Below are positions 1-22,259 of a DNA stretch of 25,813 nt, piece after piece (within the stretch, counting starts at the first letter, position 1; the number at the start of each line of letters is the position of its first letter). The DNA comes from Promethearchaeota archaeon (GTDB lineage Archaea > Asgardarchaeota > Lokiarchaeia > Sigyniarchaeales > SOKP01): the NCBI GenBank assembly GCA_048941265.1, contig JBHLNT010000051.1:1-25813 (forward strand), in the 5' to 3' direction. The notes beneath the pieces were generated by a model that saw nothing but the letters and a program-made list of their open reading frames with translations, ran no database searches and was not told the origin of the DNA. The position numbers were made by a program, and so were the translations under genes.

Positions 1-1
1 G

Positions 2-535
2 GTAGCTGGGGAAAACCTATCAAAAAATCCTAATAAACTGTTTGATTCTAATAGTGTTTATTTATTTATCGATAAATCATTGAATTTAATTTGGATATGG
101 GCAGGTTTACAATCTCGATTATTTCATAGATATATTGCAGCAAATTGGGCAGGTAAACTGAAGAATAATAAAGAATTTTATGGATTTAAATATGAGGTTA
201 TTAAAGAGGGAAGAGAACCTATAGAATTTCAATATATTACTAGTGAAATCAAAAGGGGTCCTGAAAATTATAATTTTCCTGGAGAATCAAGAAACAAAAA
301 TTCTAAAGCTAGAACATTAAAAACAACTGTTTCAAACAAATTAGGTTCTCAACAACTTCAAGTTCAACAATCAAATTCTTTGAATAGATCAAAAATCAAA
401 ATTAATAGAAATGTTCAACTTAAAATTTCCCAGATAGTTAATGAAATTAAAGAAATTCATTCTCATGTGAAATATTCAATTCAACATATAGATAAAAGAA
501 TAAATCAACTCGAGGAATTACTTAAAAATCTTTAA
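2..535 (+). CDS. Gelsolin-like domain protein with C-terminal low-complexity linker and coiled coil (5'-truncated by the window edge)
   Basis: The frame of ORF 80..535 is open back to base 2 and reads VAGENLSKNPNKLFDSNSVYLFIDKSLNLIWIWAGLQSRLFHRYIAANWAGKLK...KYEVIKEGREPIEF. This matches the gelsolin-repeat pattern (LxSxxxF/YhhD...hWhWxG..S......A...A..h...h.EG.E..EF). The tail LKISQIVNEIKEI...IDKRINQLEELLKNL looks heptad-like. Confidence 0.8.
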   Translation, partial: VAGENLSKNPNKLFDSNSVYLFIDKSLNLIWIWAGLQSRLFHRYIAANWAGKLKNNKEFYGFKYEVIKEGREPIEFQYITSEIKRGPENYNFPGESRNKNSKARTLKTTVSNKLGSQQLQVQQSNSLNRSKIKINRNVQLKISQIVNEIKEIHSHVKYSIQHIDKRINQLEELLKNL

Positions 536-558
536 TCATATTAAAGGAAGGGAATTCA

Positions 559-1461
559 ATGGAAAATATTGCATTAAATCCTAAATCCATCCACAATTTG
601 TTAGATCAGCTAAAAGCTTCTACCGGTATAGAATTTAAATGCTATAGAACGAATTTTCTTGAAAGAAGGATTAAAGCTCGGATGATTCGACTTGACCTGA
701 AAACTGATCAAAGCTATCTTGATTATATTTTATCAAATCCCCAAGAAATTGATTTATTTTTAGAGCGCTTTACCATTAATTATAGTTATTTTTTTAGAAA
801 TATTGAAATTTTCAATAAACTCCGTGATATAATTTTTGCGTGTAAGAGTGAAAAATTTCAAACCCCTTCAGATAATTATGAATATATTTCAGATCTTTCT
901 ATATTTGACAAAATCCGGAGATCTTATGCTTATAAAGATTCAGGACTGAGAATTTGGTCATGTCCTTGCGCATCAGGTGAAGAACCTTATTCTTTGGTGA
1001 TGCTTTTGGAACACCTTAAAAAACTAATTACTGAATTTCCCAATTATGAGATTACAGCTTCCGATATAGATAAAAATGCTATTAAAATAGCAAGAACTGG
1101 AATTTATGGTGCAGAATCTTTAAAAGAAACACCTTATGATTATATTTCTAATTATTTTTCTAAATTTCACGACCCACTTGGGCCTAAGTATTTAATCAAT
1201 AATGATATTAAAAGAAAAGTAGAATTCATAACCGAAGATGTAACCAAAGGGCATAACAAGGATCAAAAATACGATATTATTTTTTGTAGATATTTATTAA
1301 TTTATATTAATAGGGATTTTAGGGAAAATTTATTGCGAATTATTTATAATCATTTAGCTCCCGGTGGGCTATTAGTTCTTGGAAAAACAGAAACTCTTTT
1401 AAATTCCAACCTCAATCTCAAATTATTTGATGGAAGGAATCATTTTTATATAAAAAATTAA
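559..1461 (+). CDS. cheR: Chemotaxis protein-glutamate O-methyltransferase CheR
   Basis: Motifs FLERRIKARM, TINYSYFFRN, LRIWSCPCASGEEPYSL, ITASDID, YDIIFCRYLLIY and LAPGGLLVLGKTETL. Purine-rich AAGGAAGGG upstream of the ATG. Confidence 0.95.
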   Translation: MENIALNPKSIHNLLDQLKASTGIEFKCYRTNFLERRIKARMIRLDLKTDQSYLDYILSNPQEIDLFLERFTINYSYFFRNIEIFNKLRDIIFACKSEKFQTPSDNYEYISDLSIFDKIRRSYAYKDSGLRIWSCPCASGEEPYSLVMLLEHLKKLITEFPNYEITASDIDKNAIKIARTGIYGAESLKETPYDYISNYFSKFHDPLGPKYLINNDIKRKVEFITEDVTKGHNKDQKYDIIFCRYLLIYINRDFRENLLRIIYNHLAPGGLLVLGKTETLLNSNLNLKLFDGRNHFYIKN

Positions 1462-1475
1462 AAAGCTATAACACC

Positions 1476-2021
1476 ATGGCTCATGAAGAACAAATAGATC
1501 GCATTGTTAAACCTAATCAATATGGAATAATCCACTTACCAATAGCCCATTATGCTTTAATAAACTCCAGTAAAGAATATAAAAAATATCTAAAAATTTC
1601 TATACATGGATTAGGATCTTGTATGGCAATACTCTTAGTAGATCCAATACAACATTTACATGCAATGTCCCATTCTTTACTTCCATCATCTGAAATCGAA
1701 AATATTTCTCAAATAAAATACCCTCATAAATTTGTAAAATCTTCCATCGAGGATTTATTAGATAAATTATTACAACGTGGATCAAAAATAAAAAACTTAA
1801 AAGCAATTATAATTGGAGGGGCTACTATTTTTGATAATGAATTTAATTACATTGGTCAGCAAAATATTAAAATCGCTCGAGAAATACTAAACTCATTAAA
1901 AATTAAGATTTTTTTCGAAGATGTTGGGGGGAGAAAAGGGAGGACAATAATATACAATATAAAGGATCATTCAATTTTAATAGAAACAAATAAAGGTACA
2001 ATTACTAAAGAAATCAATTAA
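1476..2021 (+). CDS. cheD: Chemoreceptor glutamine deamidase CheD
   Basis: GLGSC (catalytic Cys), AMSHSLLP (catalytic His), LKAIIIGGA, IGQQNI and EDVGGRKGRTI. Adjacent to cheC. Confidence 0.93.
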   Translation: MAHEEQIDRIVKPNQYGIIHLPIAHYALINSSKEYKKYLKISIHGLGSCMAILLVDPIQHLHAMSHSLLPSSEIENISQIKYPHKFVKSSIEDLLDKLLQRGSKIKNLKAIIIGGATIFDNEFNYIGQQNIKIAREILNSLKIKIFFEDVGGRKGRTIIYNIKDHSILIETNKGTITKEIN

Positions 2022-2044
2022 AATAAAAAATAATTTGAGTAAAA

Positions 2045-2704
2045 ATGAAGTTAGAAGTAAATTCAAATGGAGAAAATGAATTTATAAAATTGACCCCTGG
2101 ACAATTGGATTCATTAAGAGAATTAGGGAATATAGGATCAGGAAATGCGGTCGTTGCATTGTCAGAATTAATCAATAAAAGAATTGAAGTTTCTTTAACT
2201 GGGATCAATATAATTCCTTTTTGGAATTTGAGTAAGGTATTTCCTGATTCCGACACAGAAATATTTGGAATTTGTTCAAATATCAGAGGAGAACATAACT
2301 TGACTCTATTACAAATATACACTAAAGAGTCTATAATTAGTATGATCAATATAATTTTGATTGAGAGTGAAAAAAGAATTGAAAATATAAATAGCATTGA
2401 AGAATTAGATGAATTAACTAAAAGTACAATTTTAGAAATCGGAAATATTTTAGTAGGACATTATGCAAGCTCATTAGCTAATTTAATGGCGATAAAATTA
2501 ATACCTGATGTTCCTGATTTAGCTTTAGATACTATTGGAGCAATCTGTAATTCCATTGCTGCAAACTATTCCAAGCTAACAGATTTTATAATAATAATCA
2601 ATACAGAAATAAAAATTGAGAAATTAAGTATAGAAGGAATTATTTTTTTTATTCCAAGTATAGAAACCATTGAATCAATATTTAGACTTCTTAATATCAA
2701 GTAA
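2045..2704 (+). CDS. cheC: CheY-P phosphatase CheC
   Basis: Two E-x-x-N phosphatase motifs: LDSLRELGNIGSGNAVVALSELI and STILEIGNILVGHYASSLANL. Also PDVP and C-terminal IFFIP. Confidence 0.93.
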   Translation: MKLEVNSNGENEFIKLTPGQLDSLRELGNIGSGNAVVALSELINKRIEVSLTGINIIPFWNLSKVFPDSDTEIFGICSNIRGEHNLTLLQIYTKESIISMINIILIESEKRIENINSIEELDELTKSTILEIGNILVGHYASSLANLMAIKLIPDVPDLALDTIGAICNSIAANYSKLTDFIIIINTEIKIEKLSIEGIIFFIPSIETIESIFRLLNIK

Positions 2705-2763
2705 TTTTTTAAAACGTTAATGAAAACTTAAGTTAAGTGTTCAATTTCTCGGGTAAGGTCTTT

Positions 2764-2792
2764 TAAAATTAGGTTCCCCATACCTAATTTTA
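2764..2792. repeat. Perfect 11-bp inverted repeat (TAAAATTAGGT-N7-ACCTAATTTTA) downstream of cheC
   Basis: Read directly: arms at 2764-2774 and 2782-2792, loop TCCCCAT. Function unknown. Confidence 0.55.
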
Positions 2793-2983
2793 CTCTATCA
2801 GAAAAAAATAAAACCAAAATAACTATCTTTTTGATAGTCTACTTAGATTTTTAAAATTATTTAAAGGGGTTTTTTTCACTTTTTTTTTGTATCATGAACT
2901 AATACATTTTTCTATTTCATTAATTTTTTAAATAATTAGTTTATAAGGTTTATAAAATAGAATATGTCAGTTAGTCTTACAAA

Positions 2984-3005
2984 AATTTCTAAAATTTTAG
3001 AAATT
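2984..3005. promoter_or_regulatory. 22-bp perfect palindrome AATTTCTAAAATTTTAGAAATT upstream of cheY, candidate operator
   Basis: Perfect dyad ending 41 bp before the cheY ATG, just downstream of a TATA-like TTTATAAAA at ~2950. The AT-rich context makes a chance occurrence possible. Confidence 0.35.
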
Positions 3006-3046
3006 CATACTTAATATCTTTCATGAAAAATTAGGGGAATGTTTAT

Positions 3047-3436
3047 ATGTCTAAATACAATAATAAAAAAAGGGTAATGATCGTTGATGATGCTGGATTT
3101 ACAAGAGCAATGCTTAAAAACATTATAAACGATACTAATTATGCTGAAGTTATTGCAGAAGCAAAAAACGGAAAAGAAGCAATTATGTTATATGAAAAAT
3201 TAAAGCCTGATATGGTTACGATGGATCTCATCATGCCAGAGGTAGGAGGGCTCGAAGCCATAGACAGTATCCTAAAAATTGATAAATCAGCATCAATCAT
3301 AGTAGTGTCTGCTATCGGTCAACAAGATTTGATCCTTGAAGCCACAAAAAAAGGAGCTAAGGATTTCATCCGTAAGCCCTTTAAAAAAGATCAAGTTGTT
3401 GAGATACTAGAAAGACACATTAAAGCAAGAACTTAA
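3047..3436 (+). CDS. cheY: Single-domain response regulator CheY
   Basis: IVDDAGFTRAML, phospho-acceptor TMDLIMP, VVSAIGQ and FIRKPF. Bacillus/archaeal CheY type, located in the che cluster. Confidence 0.92.
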   Translation: MSKYNNKKRVMIVDDAGFTRAMLKNIINDTNYAEVIAEAKNGKEAIMLYEKLKPDMVTMDLIMPEVGGLEAIDSILKIDKSASIIVVSAIGQQDLILEATKKGAKDFIRKPFKKDQVVEILERHIKART

Positions 3437-3505
3437 AAGTAGGAATAAAACTACTTTTTTTCAACATTTTAAAGGATTTGATTTGAAATCAAATACGAGT
3501 TATTT

Positions 3506-4678
3506 ATGAGTACTCTTAAGAATGCAAAAATTAATGATAATTTACAAAGGAAAGTTAAACTATTAATCGCTGAGGACTCCAGTTATCAACGGAAAGTTAT
3601 TTCAGATATGCTTTCAGAACATCCTCAAATCGAGATAGTTGATATAGCAAGAAATGGAGAAGATGCCATTGCGAAGATTGAATCATCTAATCCAGATGTT
3701 CTGCTCTTGGATCTAATTATGCCAAAAATGGATGGATTATCGCTATATAAATATCTTTCGAAACATTATCCTGTACCGACGATAGTTTTTTCTGCTCTAG
3801 ATCCCAAAGAAGCATCGAAAACACTAAATGATTCCATTGAGGCGCTTCTTTTGGGAGCATTCGATTATATTATAAAACCTAGTGGAATATGGAAAGAGGA
3901 ATTTCCTAAATTTAAGGAACAATTAATTGATAAAGTCTTATTAGCATCTGAAATCAAAATTAAAAAAGATTTAATTAAACAGAAACTAAAGAAAAAAGAA
4001 TCGGCTATCATTCAACCTAAAAAAGCATTTGATGCCGAAGATTTAAGTTTAAAAAGAATCTCTGAGACTCCAGGAATTATAAGAAAAGCAATAACAAATG
4101 GCATAATAGTTATGGGCGCAAGTGTTGGAGGACCTCGTACACTAAAATCGATATTAAAAAATATACCCACAAATTTTTTAGGATCAATTTTAGTTGTCCA
4201 ACATTTAAACCCTTTTTTTATGGAACAGTTTGCCAAGTCTCTAGATCATTTATGCAAAATAAATGTCAAAATTGCTCTTAATGGTGAAAAAATTAAGCCT
4301 GGACATGTATATATCGCTCCTGGAGACAAGCACATGGAAATTGTCTTAAGAGAGAATAAACCGAGTATTAGAATTTTTGATAAAGAGCCTGTAAATTTTT
4401 GCAAACCATCAATTGATGTTCTTTTTTTCTCGGCGGTGAAAATATTCAATAAAAAAACATTGGCCATTCTATTGACTGGGATGGGTAAAGATGGTGTTCA
4501 AGGTTTAGGTGCAATTCAAAAATCTGGTGGTATAACTATAGCGGAGTCTGAAGAAACAGCAATTCTTTATGGTATGCCAAAATTTGCGGCTAATTATGGC
4601 TTTGCTGAGATTATAAGTCCAAATTACAAAATTAAAGACTATATTTTAAGATATGCTTCAAAATTTTTAAGTTCTTAA
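3506..4678 (+). CDS. cheB: Chemotaxis methylesterase CheB (REC + methylesterase), paralog 1
   Basis: REC domain (IAEDS, LLDLIMP, AFDYIIKP). Catalytic Ser/His/Asp in GASVGGP, VVQHL and LTGMGKDG. Also KPSIDVLF and LYGMPK. Confidence 0.95.
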   Translation: MSTLKNAKINDNLQRKVKLLIAEDSSYQRKVISDMLSEHPQIEIVDIARNGEDAIAKIESSNPDVLLLDLIMPKMDGLSLYKYLSKHYPVPTIVFSALDPKEASKTLNDSIEALLLGAFDYIIKPSGIWKEEFPKFKEQLIDKVLLASEIKIKKDLIKQKLKKKESAIIQPKKAFDAEDLSLKRISETPGIIRKAITNGIIVMGASVGGPRTLKSILKNIPTNFLGSILVVQHLNPFFMEQFAKSLDHLCKINVKIALNGEKIKPGHVYIAPGDKHMEIVLRENKPSIRIFDKEPVNFCKPSIDVLFFSAVKIFNKKTLAILLTGMGKDGVQGLGAIQKSGGITIAESEETAILYGMPKFAANYGFAEIISPNYKIKDYILRYASKFLSS

Positions 4679-4857: not shown

Positions 4858-5823
4858 ATGTTGCGCGTAACGTTATTAGAAGAATTGCTAGCAAATTTTT
4901 TGAATGAAGTTAACGATTTGTTTGCTATCTTAATTGTGGATTTGGATGGCTTAATAATCGCTCGCCAATCTGTAAAGAATTTTGATGAAGAAATTATTGG
5001 AGCGATTATGAGTATTCTTGAAGGAGCTCTTAATAAAATTAAAAGATTTGCTAATACTTCTTATGGCAGTGGCACATTTGATACAAATGATTTTCGTTTA
5101 TTTTATTTAGAATTGGGAAAAGTCGGGTCAACTAGGGCGCTATTTGTTTTGGTAGCAGATGCTTACTCTGATATTGATAAATTCATCCCATATTCATATA
5201 TCGTGGCTGAAAAAGCATCACAAATTCTAAATGATCGAAAAATTTCTACTAAACTTCCAAAACTTGTTAATGGTGGGAGCATAGAACTGGAATCTAATAA
5301 CGATTCTAATGGTAAAAATATCATTAATAAAATTATATTAATTGGAGCAGAAAATGTTGGTAAAAGTGCCATTTCAAATATGTTTGTTAATGGTGAATTT
5401 ATCGAACAATATAAACCTACAATTGGACTTTCAATAATTGACAAAGAACTTCAGATTATGAGAGATATTAAAATTACATTCTCATTGTTCGATTTAGGAG
5501 GTCTAAAGAGTTTTGCGAAGATACGTAGGCATTTCTACAAATACTCGAGGGCAGTTCTTGTTATATTCGATTATTCTCGGACAGAAACTTTAGGTATGAT
5601 TAACGAGTGGATTGAAGAAGCTCGCCATTTTATTAAGGATTCGACAATCCCTTATATTATTGTCGGCAATAAGATTGATAAATTAGATAATAGAGAAGAA
5701 TTCAGGAGCAATGCTAACAAACTTGCGAATCAATATAACTTTCAATTTTTTGAAACCTCTGCTTTAACAGGGGAGGGTTTGGATGAATTATTTATGCGTT
5801 TAACATCAAATCTAGGTATATAA
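4858..5823 (+). CDS. Roadblock/LC7 (MglB-like) domain fused to a Rab-like small GTPase
   Basis: The N-terminal ~125 aa has the roadblock pattern (LANFLNEV..AILIVDLDGLIIA...IIGAIMS...ALFVLVAD...VAEKASQIL). The C-terminal G domain has G1 GAENVGKS, G2 PTIG, G3 DLGGL, G4 NKID and G5 ETSA. Confidence 0.9.
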   Translation: MLRVTLLEELLANFLNEVNDLFAILIVDLDGLIIARQSVKNFDEEIIGAIMSILEGALNKIKRFANTSYGSGTFDTNDFRLFYLELGKVGSTRALFVLVADAYSDIDKFIPYSYIVAEKASQILNDRKISTKLPKLVNGGSIELESNNDSNGKNIINKIILIGAENVGKSAISNMFVNGEFIEQYKPTIGLSIIDKELQIMRDIKITFSLFDLGGLKSFAKIRRHFYKYSRAVLVIFDYSRTETLGMINEWIEEARHFIKDSTIPYIIVGNKIDKLDNREEFRSNANKLANQYNFQFFETSALTGEGLDELFMRLTSNLGI

Positions 5824-5896: not shown

Positions 5897-7330
5897 ATGA
5901 GTAGTGAGACAATTAGTGTTATTATAGCAGATGATTCAGAGTTTTTAAGAAAATCAATCACAAATATCCTTTCTACTGATGAAAAAATTAATATTGCAGA
6001 TTATGCAAAAAATGGAATAGAAGCAGTCAAATTAGTAAAAAAATATCGTCCTGACGTATTAATTCTTGACTTGATTATGCCTGAAATGAATGGCCTTGAT
6101 GCCTTTAAAGAAATTATGGACTATAATCCTACTCCCACAATTATATTATCAGCTGTTAATCCTCAAAATATGGATACTTCAATTCAAGCCTTATTAATGG
6201 GAGCTTTTGATTATGTAATTAAACCAGGGGGATTAGGGGCAAAAAATTTACCAAGATTTAAAGAAGAACTACTTGCTAAAGTTCTTCTCGCATCAAAGTC
6301 TCAAATTAAGAAAATTTTTGCAACAGAGAATAATTTAAGTAAAAAAACTTATATCCGACAAGAGCTAGTGAGCGAGACTTTTAAATTCGGAAAATACATT
6401 AATAAATTAGAACCTATTAAAGAAACTGAAAAAATAACACAAAAAGAAGGGCATACTGCAAACAAACCTATCGAGACTATTCAAGTTAAAATAATGCCAG
6501 AAATAAAAGAAATTAATCAACAAAAGGAACCTCCTGTAAAAATAATTAAAGAACCAATTAAACAACAAGTAAATACAAGCACAACAACAGAGGTAGCCGA
6601 ACAGTCGACAAAAACGGTCGTCGAAAAACCAAAAAACAAAATTAAATCATTAGACCGTATATCTAAATCAATATTAAAATCTAAAATTAAAAGGGACAAA
6701 GTATTAGAAAAGACCAATCTCACCCCATTTAAGGGGATCCATTTAGTATCTAATGTGATTGTTATTGGAGCGAGCGTAGGCGGTCCAAGAACCTTAAAAA
6801 CTGTATTTATGGAGATTCCTAATAATATTTCATGTCCAATTTTGGTAGTTCAACACTTAAGCGACCCTTTTATAAATTCTTTTATTAATAGCTTAAATGA
6901 AGCATGTGATATTTATATAAAAGTGGGTGTTGATGGGGAGTTTCTTCAACCCGGGGTTGTCTATTTTGCTCCAGGTGGCAAACACATGGAGATTTCTGTA
7001 AAAAACAATAAACCTTGTATCCGCATATTTTCAGGAGAACCAGTTCATTACTGTATACCTTCAATTGATGTGTTATTCTTTTCTGCTTGTAAAGTCTTTC
7101 GAAAAAAAACAATGGGAATCTTACTAACAGGTATGGGAGAAGATGGTGTTGACGGATTAGAAGCTATTAAGCGTATAGGCGGAAAAACAATCGCAGAATC
7201 CCAAGAAACATGCGTCTTATACGGTATGCCAAGAATCGCCATTGAAAGTGGTGCTGCTCAAATTCAAAGTCCAAGTTATAGAATACCGAAACATATTGCA
7301 GACTTTGCTAACCTTAAAAAGATAAAGTAG
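5897..7330 (+). CDS. cheB: Chemotaxis methylesterase CheB paralog 2 with a ~150-aa interdomain linker
   Basis: REC domain (ADDS, ILDLIMP, AFDYVIKP). Methylesterase motifs GASVGGP, VVQHL, PSIDVLF, LTGMGEDG and LYGMPR. Long K/E/P/T-rich linker. Confidence 0.93.
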   Translation: MSSETISVIIADDSEFLRKSITNILSTDEKINIADYAKNGIEAVKLVKKYRPDVLILDLIMPEMNGLDAFKEIMDYNPTPTIILSAVNPQNMDTSIQALLMGAFDYVIKPGGLGAKNLPRFKEELLAKVLLASKSQIKKIFATENNLSKKTYIRQELVSETFKFGKYINKLEPIKETEKITQKEGHTANKPIETIQVKIMPEIKEINQQKEPPVKIIKEPIKQQVNTSTTTEVAEQSTKTVVEKPKNKIKSLDRISKSILKSKIKRDKVLEKTNLTPFKGIHLVSNVIVIGASVGGPRTLKTVFMEIPNNISCPILVVQHLSDPFINSFINSLNEACDIYIKVGVDGEFLQPGVVYFAPGGKHMEISVKNNKPCIRIFSGEPVHYCIPSIDVLFFSACKVFRKKTMGILLTGMGEDGVDGLEAIKRIGGKTIAESQETCVLYGMPRIAIESGAAQIQSPSYRIPKHIADFANLKKIK

Positions 7331-9146: not shown

Positions 9147-9923
9147 TTGATTGAGAGAGTAAAGCACATCCTTAGAAAAGTAGAATTTAAAAATAAAAAG
9201 TCGTCATCCGAAGAAGATCACATACATTTAAGTGAAGAACAAATTCAAATGATTGCCGAATATGCAGTGGCGAAGCTTACTGAAAAACTAGGAAAAGAAA
9301 AATCCTCAACTAATGGTATAAAAGGTACTCATGATATTATTAGCTCCGATATATTAGAACCTAAGAGAAAGGTTATAGAGCAAAAAGAATTTTCTACGGG
9401 TGTTCGAATTGGAGGTATTATTCTCTTAGGAATGTGCATTTGGTATTGGATATGGTTTTTCTTTATTGTACAGCAGCTCGAACCTTTAACGTATTCGGTA
9501 TATATTACAATGATCTTAGTTGCCTTAACGCTTATTAATAAATTTGAGTCTGTATTGCTTAACTCTATTACAAGTATTACTGTATACGGATTCATTATGA
9601 TAGCAATTGGTTCTATTCGAGTAGCAACAGATATTTATAGTTTTTATACCGGACCAATCTTATACGGGCTTATTGGGGGGTTCCAATTATTTATTGTTTT
9701 ACATCGAAAAATCGCGGTCTCTAAACGATATATGTTCTGGGGGTTTCTTTTTTATCTGTTATTTATAAGTAGCTTTGAGTCTTTTACTCATGTAAATGTG
9801 ATAATTGGTACAGAAGAAATATTTCCTGAACTGGTAACCGCAGTTTTGTCTTTTTACATTCTGGGCTTAACTTTTATTGTGATTTATTTTTATAAAAAGA
9901 GATTTGGGATCTTACTTCCATAA
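9147..9923 (+). CDS. Multi-pass (~6 TM) membrane protein of unknown function, paralog of 11283..12065
   Basis: Soluble N-terminus followed by hydrophobic segments. Shares LEP.RKV.E.KE.S.GVR..GI.LLGMC..YWI.FFFIV, INKFES..LNS, GPIL.G, SKRY and YFYKKR...LLP with 11283..12065. TTG start, uncertain. Confidence 0.8.
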   Translation: MIERVKHILRKVEFKNKKSSSEEDHIHLSEEQIQMIAEYAVAKLTEKLGKEKSSTNGIKGTHDIISSDILEPKRKVIEQKEFSTGVRIGGIILLGMCIWYWIWFFFIVQQLEPLTYSVYITMILVALTLINKFESVLLNSITSITVYGFIMIAIGSIRVATDIYSFYTGPILYGLIGGFQLFIVLHRKIAVSKRYMFWGFLFYLLFISSFESFTHVNVIIGTEEIFPELVTAVLSFYILGLTFIVIYFYKKRFGILLP

Positions 9924-11282: not shown

Positions 11283-12065
11283 TTGAAGGGGTTGATGCAA
11301 AAGATAAGCAAAATTTCTAAGGGAATTAAGGAAAATAAAAAGATAGGAGCTATATTATCTCAAGAAGATTCTAGACAATTTCAAATCAGTGATAATGATA
11401 TAGCTATAATAACAGATAAAGTTATTGTTCGAATAAGAGAGGAATTAGAAAAAGCCGAACTATCAAATAATCTTTCGTATAATTATTTAGCTTCCTTAGA
11501 GCCAAGAAGGAAGGTCCTTGAGAGAAAGGAATATTCAATAGGAGTGAGAACATTTGGAATAGGTTTGCTTGGCATGTGTGTAGCTTATTGGATTTATTTC
11601 TTTTTTATAGTTCACGATTTTGTTCCCTTAACTCATACAACCTATTTGACACTAATTTTGATATCTTTAACCTGTATTAATAAATTTGAATCGGCGGTGT
11701 TAAATTCATTTGTTTCTGTCTCATCTATCGGATTTTTATTGATTTCTTTGTTTTTGATTAACGCATCATATGATATTTATACGTGGATGGGCGGACCTAT
11801 ATTACATGGTGCTATGGCATCATTTCAAATCTATATAGTCTTAAATAAGAAAGTCTATATTAGTAAACGCTATCTTTTAATTGGCTTTCTCTTTTATATA
11901 ATATTCCTTAGCAATTATGATGATTATTCGAGATTAATTCAAATTACAAACATGGAAAAATTTTATACTGTATTAAGTGCGGCAATTCAAATATTCTATA
12001 TATTTATTCTTACTACTATCTTTATTTATTTTTATAAGAAACGCTCTAAAGCATTGTTGCCTTAA
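11283..12065 (+). CDS. Multi-pass (~6 TM) membrane protein of unknown function, paralog of 9147..9923
   Basis: Colinear similarity to 9147..9923 along its whole length. The start may be ATG 11295 instead of TTG 11283. Confidence 0.8.
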   Translation: MKGLMQKISKISKGIKENKKIGAILSQEDSRQFQISDNDIAIITDKVIVRIREELEKAELSNNLSYNYLASLEPRRKVLERKEYSIGVRTFGIGLLGMCVAYWIYFFFIVHDFVPLTHTTYLTLILISLTCINKFESAVLNSFVSVSSIGFLLISLFLINASYDIYTWMGGPILHGAMASFQIYIVLNKKVYISKRYLLIGFLFYIIFLSNYDDYSRLIQITNMEKFYTVLSAAIQIFYIFILTTIFIYFYKKRSKALLP

Positions 12066-16208: not shown

Positions 16209-17249
16209 ATGGACGAATCTCTTATATATGGTATCATTTATACTGAAGTTGATGAGGAAGTAGGACCAAATCCGCAAATATGGGACCCTGCTGATTTATC
16301 TGACGATCTTTTAACCCATGTTAGCATAAAAGCAATAACTCTTCTAACTGCAGAACAAGGATTAATTCCAGAATCAATAGCAATCATTCCATTTCCTTCC
16401 ATTGGCTTAAAGGGATTAATTAAATATCTTCAATTTAAAGACGATGAACGTCGCGGAGGGGTTGGTCAAGCGGCCATTACTTTACTCTTTAATGAAGTCG
16501 ATGATATCGTATTTTATAAAGGCATGGAATATTTTAATCCTGATTTTGATGAAATAGCTCAAAATATCATTGAAATTGAAGAATTAAAAAGTGATAGAGA
16601 TAAAATTCAAACGGAGATTAAAAATTTACGTGTAAAGGTCTTAGAAATATTAAATGATCTACGAATTAAAGAAACCACTCTTCAGGAATCAGAAGCGTTT
16701 CCTGAAGAAATTATTGTAGATAAAAGTAAAATCGATTACCAATTTAAAATCATAGTCTGCGGTGATCCGATGGTTGGCAAGACAAGCACCATACTTCGCT
16801 TTACGGAGAGCGCTTTTGATAGAAAATACATACCCTCGATTGGAATTAATGTAAAAGATAAAGTTATAAGGGTCAAAAAATTGAATATTCAGCTCGTAAT
16901 ATGGGACATTGCGGGCCAACAAAAATTTGAGACAATGAGATCAGCATTTTATAAGGGAGCTAGAGGAGTTCTCTTAGTTTTTGACTTAACTAATCCTAAG
17001 AGTTTCGATGATCTTAGAAATTGGTACAAGGATATTCAGCGACATGTCGACATAGAAGAACAATTAATAGGATTCATTTTGGGAAATAAGAGTGATAAAG
17101 TTGAAGATAGAAAAGTTACAAAACAACAAGCTACAGCTTTGGCTGAAGAATTAAATCTTGAATATATTGAAACATCGGCTCTAACGGGCGATAATGTAAA
17201 AGAATCTTTTTATAAAATGGGGAAATATTTATACGAGAGTTCTAAATAA
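16209..17249 (+). CDS. uDENN/longin-like N-terminal domain fused to a Rab-like small GTPase
   Basis: G1 GDPMVGKT, G2 PSIG, G3 WDIAGQQKF, FYKGARG, G4 NKSD and G5 ETSA. The N-terminus IIYTEVDEEVGPNPQIWDP resembles the uDENN/NPR2-type first strand plus D...GP....P motif (domain call is inference). Confidence 0.85.
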   Translation: MDESLIYGIIYTEVDEEVGPNPQIWDPADLSDDLLTHVSIKAITLLTAEQGLIPESIAIIPFPSIGLKGLIKYLQFKDDERRGGVGQAAITLLFNEVDDIVFYKGMEYFNPDFDEIAQNIIEIEELKSDRDKIQTEIKNLRVKVLEILNDLRIKETTLQESEAFPEEIIVDKSKIDYQFKIIVCGDPMVGKTSTILRFTESAFDRKYIPSIGINVKDKVIRVKKLNIQLVIWDIAGQQKFETMRSAFYKGARGVLLVFDLTNPKSFDDLRNWYKDIQRHVDIEEQLIGFILGNKSDKVEDRKVTKQQATALAEELNLEYIETSALTGDNVKESFYKMGKYLYESSK

Positions 17250-21680: not shown

Positions 21681-22259
21681 ATGTCAAGCAAATCACATCC
21701 TGCATATATTTTTAAGATATGTTTATTAGGTGCTGGTGCGGCTGGCAAGACATGTATAGCAAGAAGGTTATGTTATGATACATTTGATGTGAACACAAAA
21801 TTAACGATTGGAATTGATTTTTATACCTATGACTTACCGATTATAATCAACAATGAGGAAAATTTCATTCGATTATCAATTTGGGATTTTGGTGGCCAAG
21901 AGCAATTCAAACGGTTATTTACGTATTACATTAATGGAGCTAATGGAATATTTATGGTTTTTGAGTTGATTAATCTTCAAAGTTTAGTTAATTTAGATTG
22001 GTGGTATGAAAGATTAGTAGAACAAAATGTTACTGATTCTCCAAAAATAGTAATTGGCACAAAGCAAGATCTGGTAAGTCAAGTCGATGAGAAAACTAAA
22101 ATAAATGATTTGATCATTGAGCAATTTCTTAAACGACATAATGAAAAAGATTTTATAAGAACCTCCTCAAAAGATAATATAAATATTAATCGCTGCTTTA
22201 AAGAAATTTCAATAAAAATTTTAGATTTGCATGAATTAGCTTATGATAGGCTTTTATGA
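21681..22259 (+). CDS. Stand-alone Rab/Ras-like small GTPase
   Basis: G1 GAGAAGKT, G2 LTIG, G3 WDFGGQEQF, G4 TKQD and G5 TSSK. No C-terminal prenylation cysteine. Confidence 0.9.
   Translation: MSSKSHPAYIFKICLLGAGAAGKTCIARRLCYDTFDVNTKLTIGIDFYTYDLPIIINNEENFIRLSIWDFGGQEQFKRLFTYYINGANGIFMVFELINLQSLVNLDWWYERLVEQNVTDSPKIVIGTKQDLVSQVDEKTKINDLIIEQFLKRHNEKDFIRTSSKDNININRCFKEISIKILDLHELAYDRLL

Follow-up and report, generated by a model that had tools for sequence, protein, structure and literature searches.

The window described here is a stretch of 25,813 nucleotides (nt) at the start of contig C282 in the genome of a Promethearchaeota archaeon (G000:C282:1-25813; genome of 5.0 Mb in 361 contigs, 91% complete). 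It opens within a gene for a small gelsolin-domain protein that is followed directly by cheR and further genes of a chemosensory (che) cluster. The complete protein has 189 amino acids (aa), to which all residue numbers below refer, and it is a dedicated stand-alone component of the Lokiarchaeia-type chemosensory cluster, built from a gelsolin domain, a disordered linker and a heptad helix.

The gelsolin gene and its completion

The gelsolin gene has a reading frame of 177 codons, which is open from base 2 onwards and ends with a TAA at 533-535. The 3' part of the gene occupies 1..535 (+), with base 1 as the third base of codon 12 and codons 13-189 at 2-532. Mechanical open reading frame (ORF) calling places the start at a TTG at base 80, with 26 more codons upstream; the initial annotation, made from the letters of the window, had extended the frame over these codons to recover the first half of a gelsolin repeat, and LFDSNSVYLFID, IWIWAG and EGREPIEF are indeed all present in the translation. 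Its view that the ORF caller had truncated the gene is right in that the TTG start drops codons, but the gene is also cut by the contig end, at which just 12 residues are missing. Of the 189 codons of the gene, the ORF at 2..535 retains the final 177.

The missing N-terminus, which the initial annotation had expected to come from extension of the contig, has been recovered from the end of contig C253, which belongs to the same genome, from a contig of the public run X2 and from a database protein. This protein, P0001, has 189 aa and is 100% identical over all 177 residues encoded in the window, so that the missing N-terminus amounts to 12 residues. The first 35 nt of the gene, from the ATG to the second base of codon 12, lie at the end of C253, where a gene for a 636-aa CheW-CheC-CheC protein is followed by a gap of ~86 nt, the 35 nt, which begin with the ATG of the gelsolin N-terminus, and then unrelated sequence to the contig end. 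One contig of X2, 1,300 nt in length, agrees with C253 from position 129 and, past that point, reads as the exact reverse complement of window positions 1-30. As this contig bridges C253 and the start of the window, the gene is intact in nature and the break is a matter of assembly. The unrelated sequence itself, positions 1-128 of C253 (locus L060/L045), comprises the 128 nt beyond the first 35 nt of the gene; it has no match elsewhere in the genome and no coverage by contigs of runs X1-X3, and it looks like an assembly end artefact (a chimeric end) or a rare variant inside codon 12.

The stop codon precedes the ATG of cheR (559) by 23 nt, exactly as the initial annotation had it. This spacer (536..558, +) contains the purine-rich AGGAAGGG at 545-552, a putative ribosome-binding site as read from sequence, and has no terminator-like hairpin and no run of at least five T. 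The one terminator-like site in window positions 1-3500 lies inside cheR, at 1355-1371, and a scan for sigma-70-type promoters, a model that does not represent archaeal promoters, gave no excess over shuffled sequence. Thus neither of the two signals that the initial annotation had named as telling against its proposal, a terminator or a promoter ahead of cheR, was seen, and the gelsolin fold, whose absence it had named as the other such sign, is present (see below). Translation of the gelsolin gene and of cheR probably proceeds from a single transcript. The gelsolin gene is routinely annotated as ‘hypothetical’ in databases; for its protein, clusters from Promethearchaeota labelled ‘hypothetical protein’ are all that the ESM Atlas returns, none of them scoring above 0.87.

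Domain architecture and family

The gelsolin-homology domain takes up residues 1-117 of the complete protein, of which 13-117 lie in the window (2..316, +), and it is supported by an AlphaFold 2 (AF2) model, by Foldseek and by a family profile compared with PDB sequences; each of the three bears out the assignment of a gelsolin fold in the initial annotation. Both the profile and the model were built from an alignment (A1) of 40 homologues. The model has a mean predicted local distance difference test (pLDDT) score of 81, rising to 92-97 over residues 11-110, and contains strands at 10-14, 17-20, 31-36, 41-46 and 75-80, a main helix at 52-66, a second helix at 86-97 and an extra helix at 108-117 that follows a conserved YPGESR motif. 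As expected of a gelsolin/cofilin domain, the mixed beta-sheet lies sandwiched by the long main helix on one side and a shorter helix on the other. Foldseek against the PDB gives as its best match 7c2f_B, the chain of Thor ProGel from a complex with actin (E 9e-7, target template modelling score 0.75, root mean square deviation 1.9 Å, 79 columns, 24% identity). Altogether 36 matches were obtained at E<=1e-3, and those listed are gelsolin, villin, adseverin, CapG and Asgard gelsolin entries; Sec23/24 gelsolin-like domains, with which a comparison had been suggested, have no entry among the matches listed. The family profile likewise places ProGel first among PDB sequences (7c2f_B, 1.6e-8), followed by Heimdall 2DGel (7whf_G, 1.3e-6), Thor 2DGel3 (7c2h_G, 2.8e-5), Loki 2DGel (7whg_G, 1.1e-4), CapG (4e-3) and villin (0.011), and the top of the list consists only of Asgard and eukaryotic gelsolins. 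Profile and predicted fold together confirm that the protein carries a real but divergent gelsolin domain. Within it, 15 of the 17 positions in residues 50-66, at the main helix, are conserved in at least 90% of the sequences of A1, so that both faces of this helix are constrained.

The remainder of the protein was described in the initial annotation as a linker rich in N, Q, S and K followed by a C-terminal coiled coil, and the model agrees to the extent of showing a disordered linker and a C-terminal helix. The low-complexity linker (residues 118-147; 317..406, +) falls in a region with pLDDT below 50 (residues 115-144) and in gapped, unconserved columns of A1; its length and sequence differ among homologues. 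The C-terminal amphipathic helix (residues 148-189; 407..532, +) is modelled as one helix over 148-187. Its hydrophobic seam runs through residues 154, 157, 161, 164, 168, 172, 175, 179, 182, 186 and 189; it has a single 4-4 stutter, at 168-172, and this 3-4 heptad repeat, extending over ~40 residues, is conserved in the 40 homologues. A conserved polar stripe (E160, E163, H167, S171, H174, R178) lies alongside the seam. The pattern is compatible with either a coiled coil or a docking helix. A weak, sub-threshold Pfam match of the tail (E 0.002), to the TRPM tetramerisation coiled coil, is shared by 11 of the 40 family members and is read as noise.

Two gelsolins from Thorarchaeota provide the closest comparisons. 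ProGel (PDB 7C2F; Akil et al. 2020, PMC7444086), the best match by both profile and fold, is likewise a single Asgard gelsolin/cofilin domain. It consists, however, of the domain alone, in a chain of 94 residues, whereas the window protein adds the extra helix, the disordered linker and the 40-residue heptad helix; the window protein is also a member of a distinct clade that is confined to che clusters. The second, Thor 1DGelX, resembles the window protein in its architecture; it is reported in the same paper to combine one gelsolin domain with a predicted C-terminal coiled coil, to bind rabbit actin with a Kd of 7.7 uM and to sever filaments without calcium control (PMC7444086). It is said to migrate near actin on SDS-PAGE and would on that description be about twice as long as the 189-aa protein; no che linkage is described for it in the portions of PMC7444086 covered.

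The family comprises 69 proteins of 100-220 aa, and those with a named source are all from Asgard archaea (Promethearchaeota, Lokiarchaeota, Hermodarchaeota and Hodarchaeota). Searching the profile against 1.84 billion cluster representatives gave 18 matches at E<=1e-30, all of 100-205 aa, and among 523 word-sharing candidates for longer, fused forms none matched at E<=1e-5; without a fused form there is no Rosetta-stone hint at a partner. Over 400 genomes of the phylum the bit scores are bimodal, reaching at least 133 in 41 genomes while paralogues score at most 80, and the threshold for orthologues was placed in this gap of 80-133 bits after the gap had been observed. The nearest paralogue in the genome is a 174-aa protein encoded on contig C271 (446-970, +; locus L042), which has the same succession of gelsolin domain, linker and C-terminal helix, is 35% identical to the window protein (BLASTP E 1e-14) and is recognised by the Pfam Gelsolin model. 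It adjoins a gene for a FIST-domain protein rather than che genes. A genome-wide scan with this Pfam model (PF00626) gives seven matches elsewhere and misses the gelsolin gene of the che cluster.

A maximum likelihood tree was calculated from 105 columns for 67 gelsolin domains, namely 40 che-linked domains, 11 short paralogues and 16 others; the paralogues were taken from the organism's own genome and from 18 regions of other genomes picked from weaker profile matches, with the duplicate locus L040 dropped. The 40 che-linked rows all lie on one side of a long branch with support of 99/97, beside single-domain paralogues of ~180 aa. With only 105 columns the deeper branching is unreliable. To judge by the bimodal scores and by this tree, the che-linked gelsolins form a distinct subfamily, in a clade of their own.

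The che cluster and its distribution

Gene neighbourhoods were counted in 36 related loci from public genomes. A che gene adjoins the gelsolin gene in every one of them, and the gene for the CheW-CheC-CheC protein lies directly upstream in all 34 loci with upstream sequence. A fixed block, CheW-CheY-CheA-DUF11 (670 aa)-278-aa orphan-CheW-CheC-CheC-gelsolin, is present in every locus that reaches far enough. Downstream there is more variety: the next gene is cheR in 18 of the 36 loci, cheB in six, cheD in four and a Roadblock-GTPase gene in three (31/36 in total). Nothing is detectable downstream in the other five, of which four end within 800 nt and one, L031, extends for 8 kb. The Roadblock-GTPase gene is found somewhere downstream of the gelsolin gene in 21 loci; in L017, L027 and L028 it follows directly, with no adaptation genes nearby. 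The gap between the gelsolin gene and cheR ranges from -4 to 30 nt, most values being -1 to 12, with start codons that are approximate; this range omits L023 (1,054 nt, probably an ORF-calling artefact, with cheR following directly) and also L015 and L021, in which cheR runs off the locus. Taking cheR and the GTPase gene together, the gap is -4 to 59 nt, with the same approximation of starts and L023 again excepted. Upstream of the gelsolin gene, the gap is 63-195 nt in 32 loci. It is long throughout, so that a second transcription unit may begin with the gelsolin gene.

CheY1 is the best conserved of the cluster's proteins, with 72-83% identity between locus L002, the closest relative, and the other gelsolin-bearing loci. 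Two further genes that are not che genes are fixed in the cluster as strictly as the gelsolin gene. One encodes the ~670-aa protein with DUF11 repeats (C253 3057-5081, -; L002 3098-5116), in which inspection by eye found no obvious signal peptide or membrane segment. The other encodes the 278-aa orphan (C253 2185-3021, -; L002 5151-5984). The AF2 model of this orphan has a pLDDT of 88, and a wide VIA-align search with it gives 1y88_A as the top entry (Z 8.3) and then nuclease-like folds of the PD-(D/E)xK type (Z 5-8). It was also considered as a hidden CheF: its profile has no match among PDB sequences at E<=10, Foldseek gives none at E<=1e-3, and there is no CheF among the VIA-align entries listed. 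A 275-aa orphan encoded upstream of cheW is another cluster-specific protein that is not a Che protein.

In the window itself, all on the plus strand, the gelsolin gene is followed by cheR, encoding the methyltransferase (559..1461; Pfam CheR 2.7e-40, CheR_N 7e-10), cheD (1476..2021; Pfam CheD 5.4e-24) and cheC (2045..2704; Pfam CheC 2.6e-15). The gap from cheC to the first cheB holds a second cheY-like receiver gene (3047..3436; Pfam Response_reg 9.9e-26). This gene occurs only here and in L002 among the 36 loci, and the 342 nt in front of it (2705-3046) contain no ORF of at least 50 aa. Then come cheB, with receiver and methylesterase domains (3506..4678; Pfam CheB_methylest 3.2e-56), a gene for a fusion of Roadblock/LC7 and a Ras-like GTPase (4858..5823; Pfam Ras 7.2e-35, Robl_LC7 2.9e-5) and a second cheB, in which a long linker separates the receiver from the methylesterase (5897..7330; Pfam CheB_methylest 9.2e-54). 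The Roadblock-Ras fusion thus lies between the two cheB genes.

The phyletic pattern was scanned over the same 400 genomes of the phylum, 72 of which are CheA-positive as defined by the presence of the CheA dimerisation domain; the organism's family, f1, contributes 135 genomes including its own. All 41 genomes with the gelsolin orthologue are CheA-positive. Within f1 the orthologue is present in 39 of the 43 CheA-positive genomes and in none of the 92 CheA-negative ones, a pattern of co-occurrence and co-loss. In the four CheA-positive exceptions the che contig stops short of the expected site, as seen in the sequence for G152 and G155 and inferred from coordinates for G198 and G211. Outside the family, the orthologue is absent from 23 CheA-positive genomes of other classes and from four of the same class. 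The existence of these genomes indicates that the orthologue marks one type of cluster and not Asgard chemotaxis in general.

Pfam models were also used to look for the motor and its adaptor. CheF (PF04283) has no match in the organism's own genome and is found in one of the 400 genomes of the phylum, which is not CheA-positive. Archaellin (PF01917) likewise has no match in this genome and none over the cut-off in the 135 genomes of f1; the same model gives six matches, four of them over the cut-off, in G138, a genome of the same order that lacks the gelsolin orthologue and whose che cluster is of a different, more canonical kind. ArlD/E (Arch_fla_DE) is not detected in the own genome, where the ATPase model T2SSE gives a single weak match. 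Six actin-family genes are present in the same genome, one of them, on contig C116, encoding a Lokiactin (427.6 bits, Pfam Actin).

Possible coupling of chemosensing to actin

Some Asgard archaea are described as possessing chemoreceptor arrays and che genes (PMC9834061), and one-domain gelsolins of Thorarchaeota are reported to bind and regulate actin, the Asgard one-domain forms being without calcium sites (PMC7444086). Crawling by means of Lokiactin-dependent protrusions has been reported for cultured Asgard archaea (PMC13716822); the main text of that paper contains no mention of chemotaxis, chemosensory or CheY. Against this background we consider that the chemosensory system may be coupled to actin through the gelsolin protein, and we put the probability of this reading as a whole at about 0.5. 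The gelsolin domain would bind Lokiactin via its main helix, in the manner of ProGel, domain 1 of 2DGel and gelsolin G1 on actin as these are described in PMC7444086. The tail helix would self-associate or dock onto a partner from the cluster, such as the CheW-CheC-CheC protein, CheY or the Roadblock-GTPase, and the chemosensory pathway would thereby be coupled, physically or functionally, to the actin cytoskeleton. This coupling could take the form of an output that locally changes filament dynamics, or of a tether between receptor arrays and filaments. The crawling reported in PMC13716822 would provide something for such an output to steer. A more specific proposal is that the protein is the dedicated effector of a bacterial-type two-component chemotaxis pathway, probably acting with the Roadblock-Ras GTPase, and that CheY-P or the CheC module switches its action on Lokiactin and so steers crawling; we regard this as unlikely in that particular form. 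If it were true, a prokaryotic sensory system would have been wired to a eukaryote-like cytoskeleton before eukaryogenesis.

Several observations weigh against coupling to actin. The Pfam Gelsolin model does not match the window protein at E<=10 and at this level matches only eight of the 40 family members, the best with 1.9e-4. The invariant signature of the main helix, LFHRYIAANWAGKLK, is specific to the che clade, with no counterpart in the paralogues or in ProGel, and this could mean a partner other than actin. In L057 (G128:C5:928000-947000), a related cluster from another family, the block is kept, the gelsolin gene is absent before cheR and the CheW-CheC gene is shorter; the gelsolin protein is thus dispensable in at least one lineage, and its link may be with the CheC module and not with actin. 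That motor genes are lacking is a result of Pfam models applied to metagenome-assembled genomes, and a 2026 survey describes, for other Asgard genomes, archaellum loci as well as some homologues of CheF (PMC13705601).

Alternatively, the gelsolin fold might have been repurposed, without any contact with actin, for a role within the che system, either as a scaffold or regulator acting with the CheW-CheC-CheC protein, CheD/CheC or CheR or as part of the receptor array. This is the alternative that survives best, and we consider it doubtful. It would account for the constant position of the gene between that for CheW-CheC-CheC and the adaptation genes, for the tight link to cheR and for the loss of the gelsolin gene in L057 together with shortening of the CheW-CheC gene. 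The clade-specific signature of the main helix would also fit, and there is a precedent in gelsolin-like domains without demonstrated actin binding, for which Sec23a is the example given in PMC7444086. However, whether judged by sequence, by fold or in the tree, every one of the nearest relatives is an actin regulator or an Asgard homologue of one, with no Sec23/24 among the Foldseek matches listed, and in L017, L027 and L028 it is the Roadblock-GTPase gene that comes next, the adaptation genes not being nearby.

A second alternative, a specific form of the suggestion in the initial annotation of an oligomerising, actin-binding adaptor, is that the protein stands in for CheF, binding CheY-P and passing the signal straight on to actin filaments, which it would cap, sever or bundle. 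CheF (PF04283), the adaptor between CheY-P and the archaellum switch ArlCDE, is likewise a non-bacterial extra component of archaeal che clusters, and it provides the precedent for an output adaptor encoded in the cluster. The embedding of the gelsolin gene in the cluster, to which it is specific, and its coupling to cheR stand as proposed, and CheF is undetected in the own genome and in all 72 CheA-positive genomes among the 400. The conservation of CheY1, the strongest in the cluster, is as expected of a protein with several partners. There is, however, no likeness of sequence or fold between the two proteins: Pfam scans of the gelsolin protein list no CheF match, and a motif for binding CheY could not be identified. 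Conservation within the cluster is just as strict for the DUF11 protein and the 278-aa orphan, and four other cluster-specific proteins, these two together with the Roadblock-Ras GTPase and the 275-aa orphan, are equally eligible as the output adaptor. The proposal is only partly supported, and taken as a whole we think it improbable.

The Roadblock-Ras GTPase, present in 21 of the 36 loci, is as plausible a target of CheY-P as the gelsolin protein. The Frz pathway of Myxococcus xanthus is a Che-type pathway that acts on MglA, a Ras-like GTPase, and MglB, a Roadblock protein, and its output is directed to polarity and the cytoskeleton and not to a rotary motor. The window cluster, with its fusion of Roadblock and Ras GTPase, recalls this arrangement. 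The Frz pathway differs in belonging to another domain of life, and it is not known to include a gelsolin.

That an ordinary Asgard gelsolin gene has come to lie beside che genes by chance, as might be imagined given the many gelsolin paralogues of Asgard genomes and the seven Pfam Gelsolin matches elsewhere in this one, is scarcely credible when all 36 loci are che-linked, no CheA-negative genome of f1 has the orthologue, the che-linked rows form a separate and strongly supported clade and the paralogue in the own genome adjoins unrelated genes.

The gelsolin protein is a che-restricted variant of the known Asgard one-domain gelsolins, and it is the variant that is new. Full-text searches, with subscription-only papers and the supplements of PMC13716822 outside their scope, found no literature linking an Asgard gelsolin to a che cluster. 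The portions covered of PMC9834061, PMC13053709 and bioRxiv 10.1101/2025.07.22.663070 contain no such link, nor do those of the gelsolin papers PMC7444086 and PMC9433394 or of the L. ossiferum paper, Supplementary Tables 2-4 included. The gene has been easy to overlook, being usually ‘hypothetical’ and missed by the Pfam Gelsolin model. A gelsolin found only inside che clusters offers a concrete handle on the question of what Asgard che systems act upon, and in carrier genomes with actin and with undetectable CheF and archaellin it is a candidate for connecting chemical sensing to the actin skeleton. Being small, soluble and stand-alone, the protein should be easy to express and test; the natural variant in L057 could reveal what it is needed for. 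The same cluster offers another eukaryote-like candidate for its output in the Roadblock-Ras GTPase. If the coupling to actin is correct, directed movement that is based on actin and controlled by receptors would be older than the eukaryotes.

Further along the window, two paralogous genes at 9147-9923 (+) and 11283-12065 (+) encode proteins of ~260 aa that are 42% identical (E 7e-73), contain several hydrophobic segments and have no Pfam match; an unrelated hydrophobic ORF of 244 aa lies between them. Two more genes for Ras-family GTPases are found at 16209-17249 (+) and 21681-22259 (+), and one of these GTPases has an N-terminal extension of 175 residues without a Pfam match.

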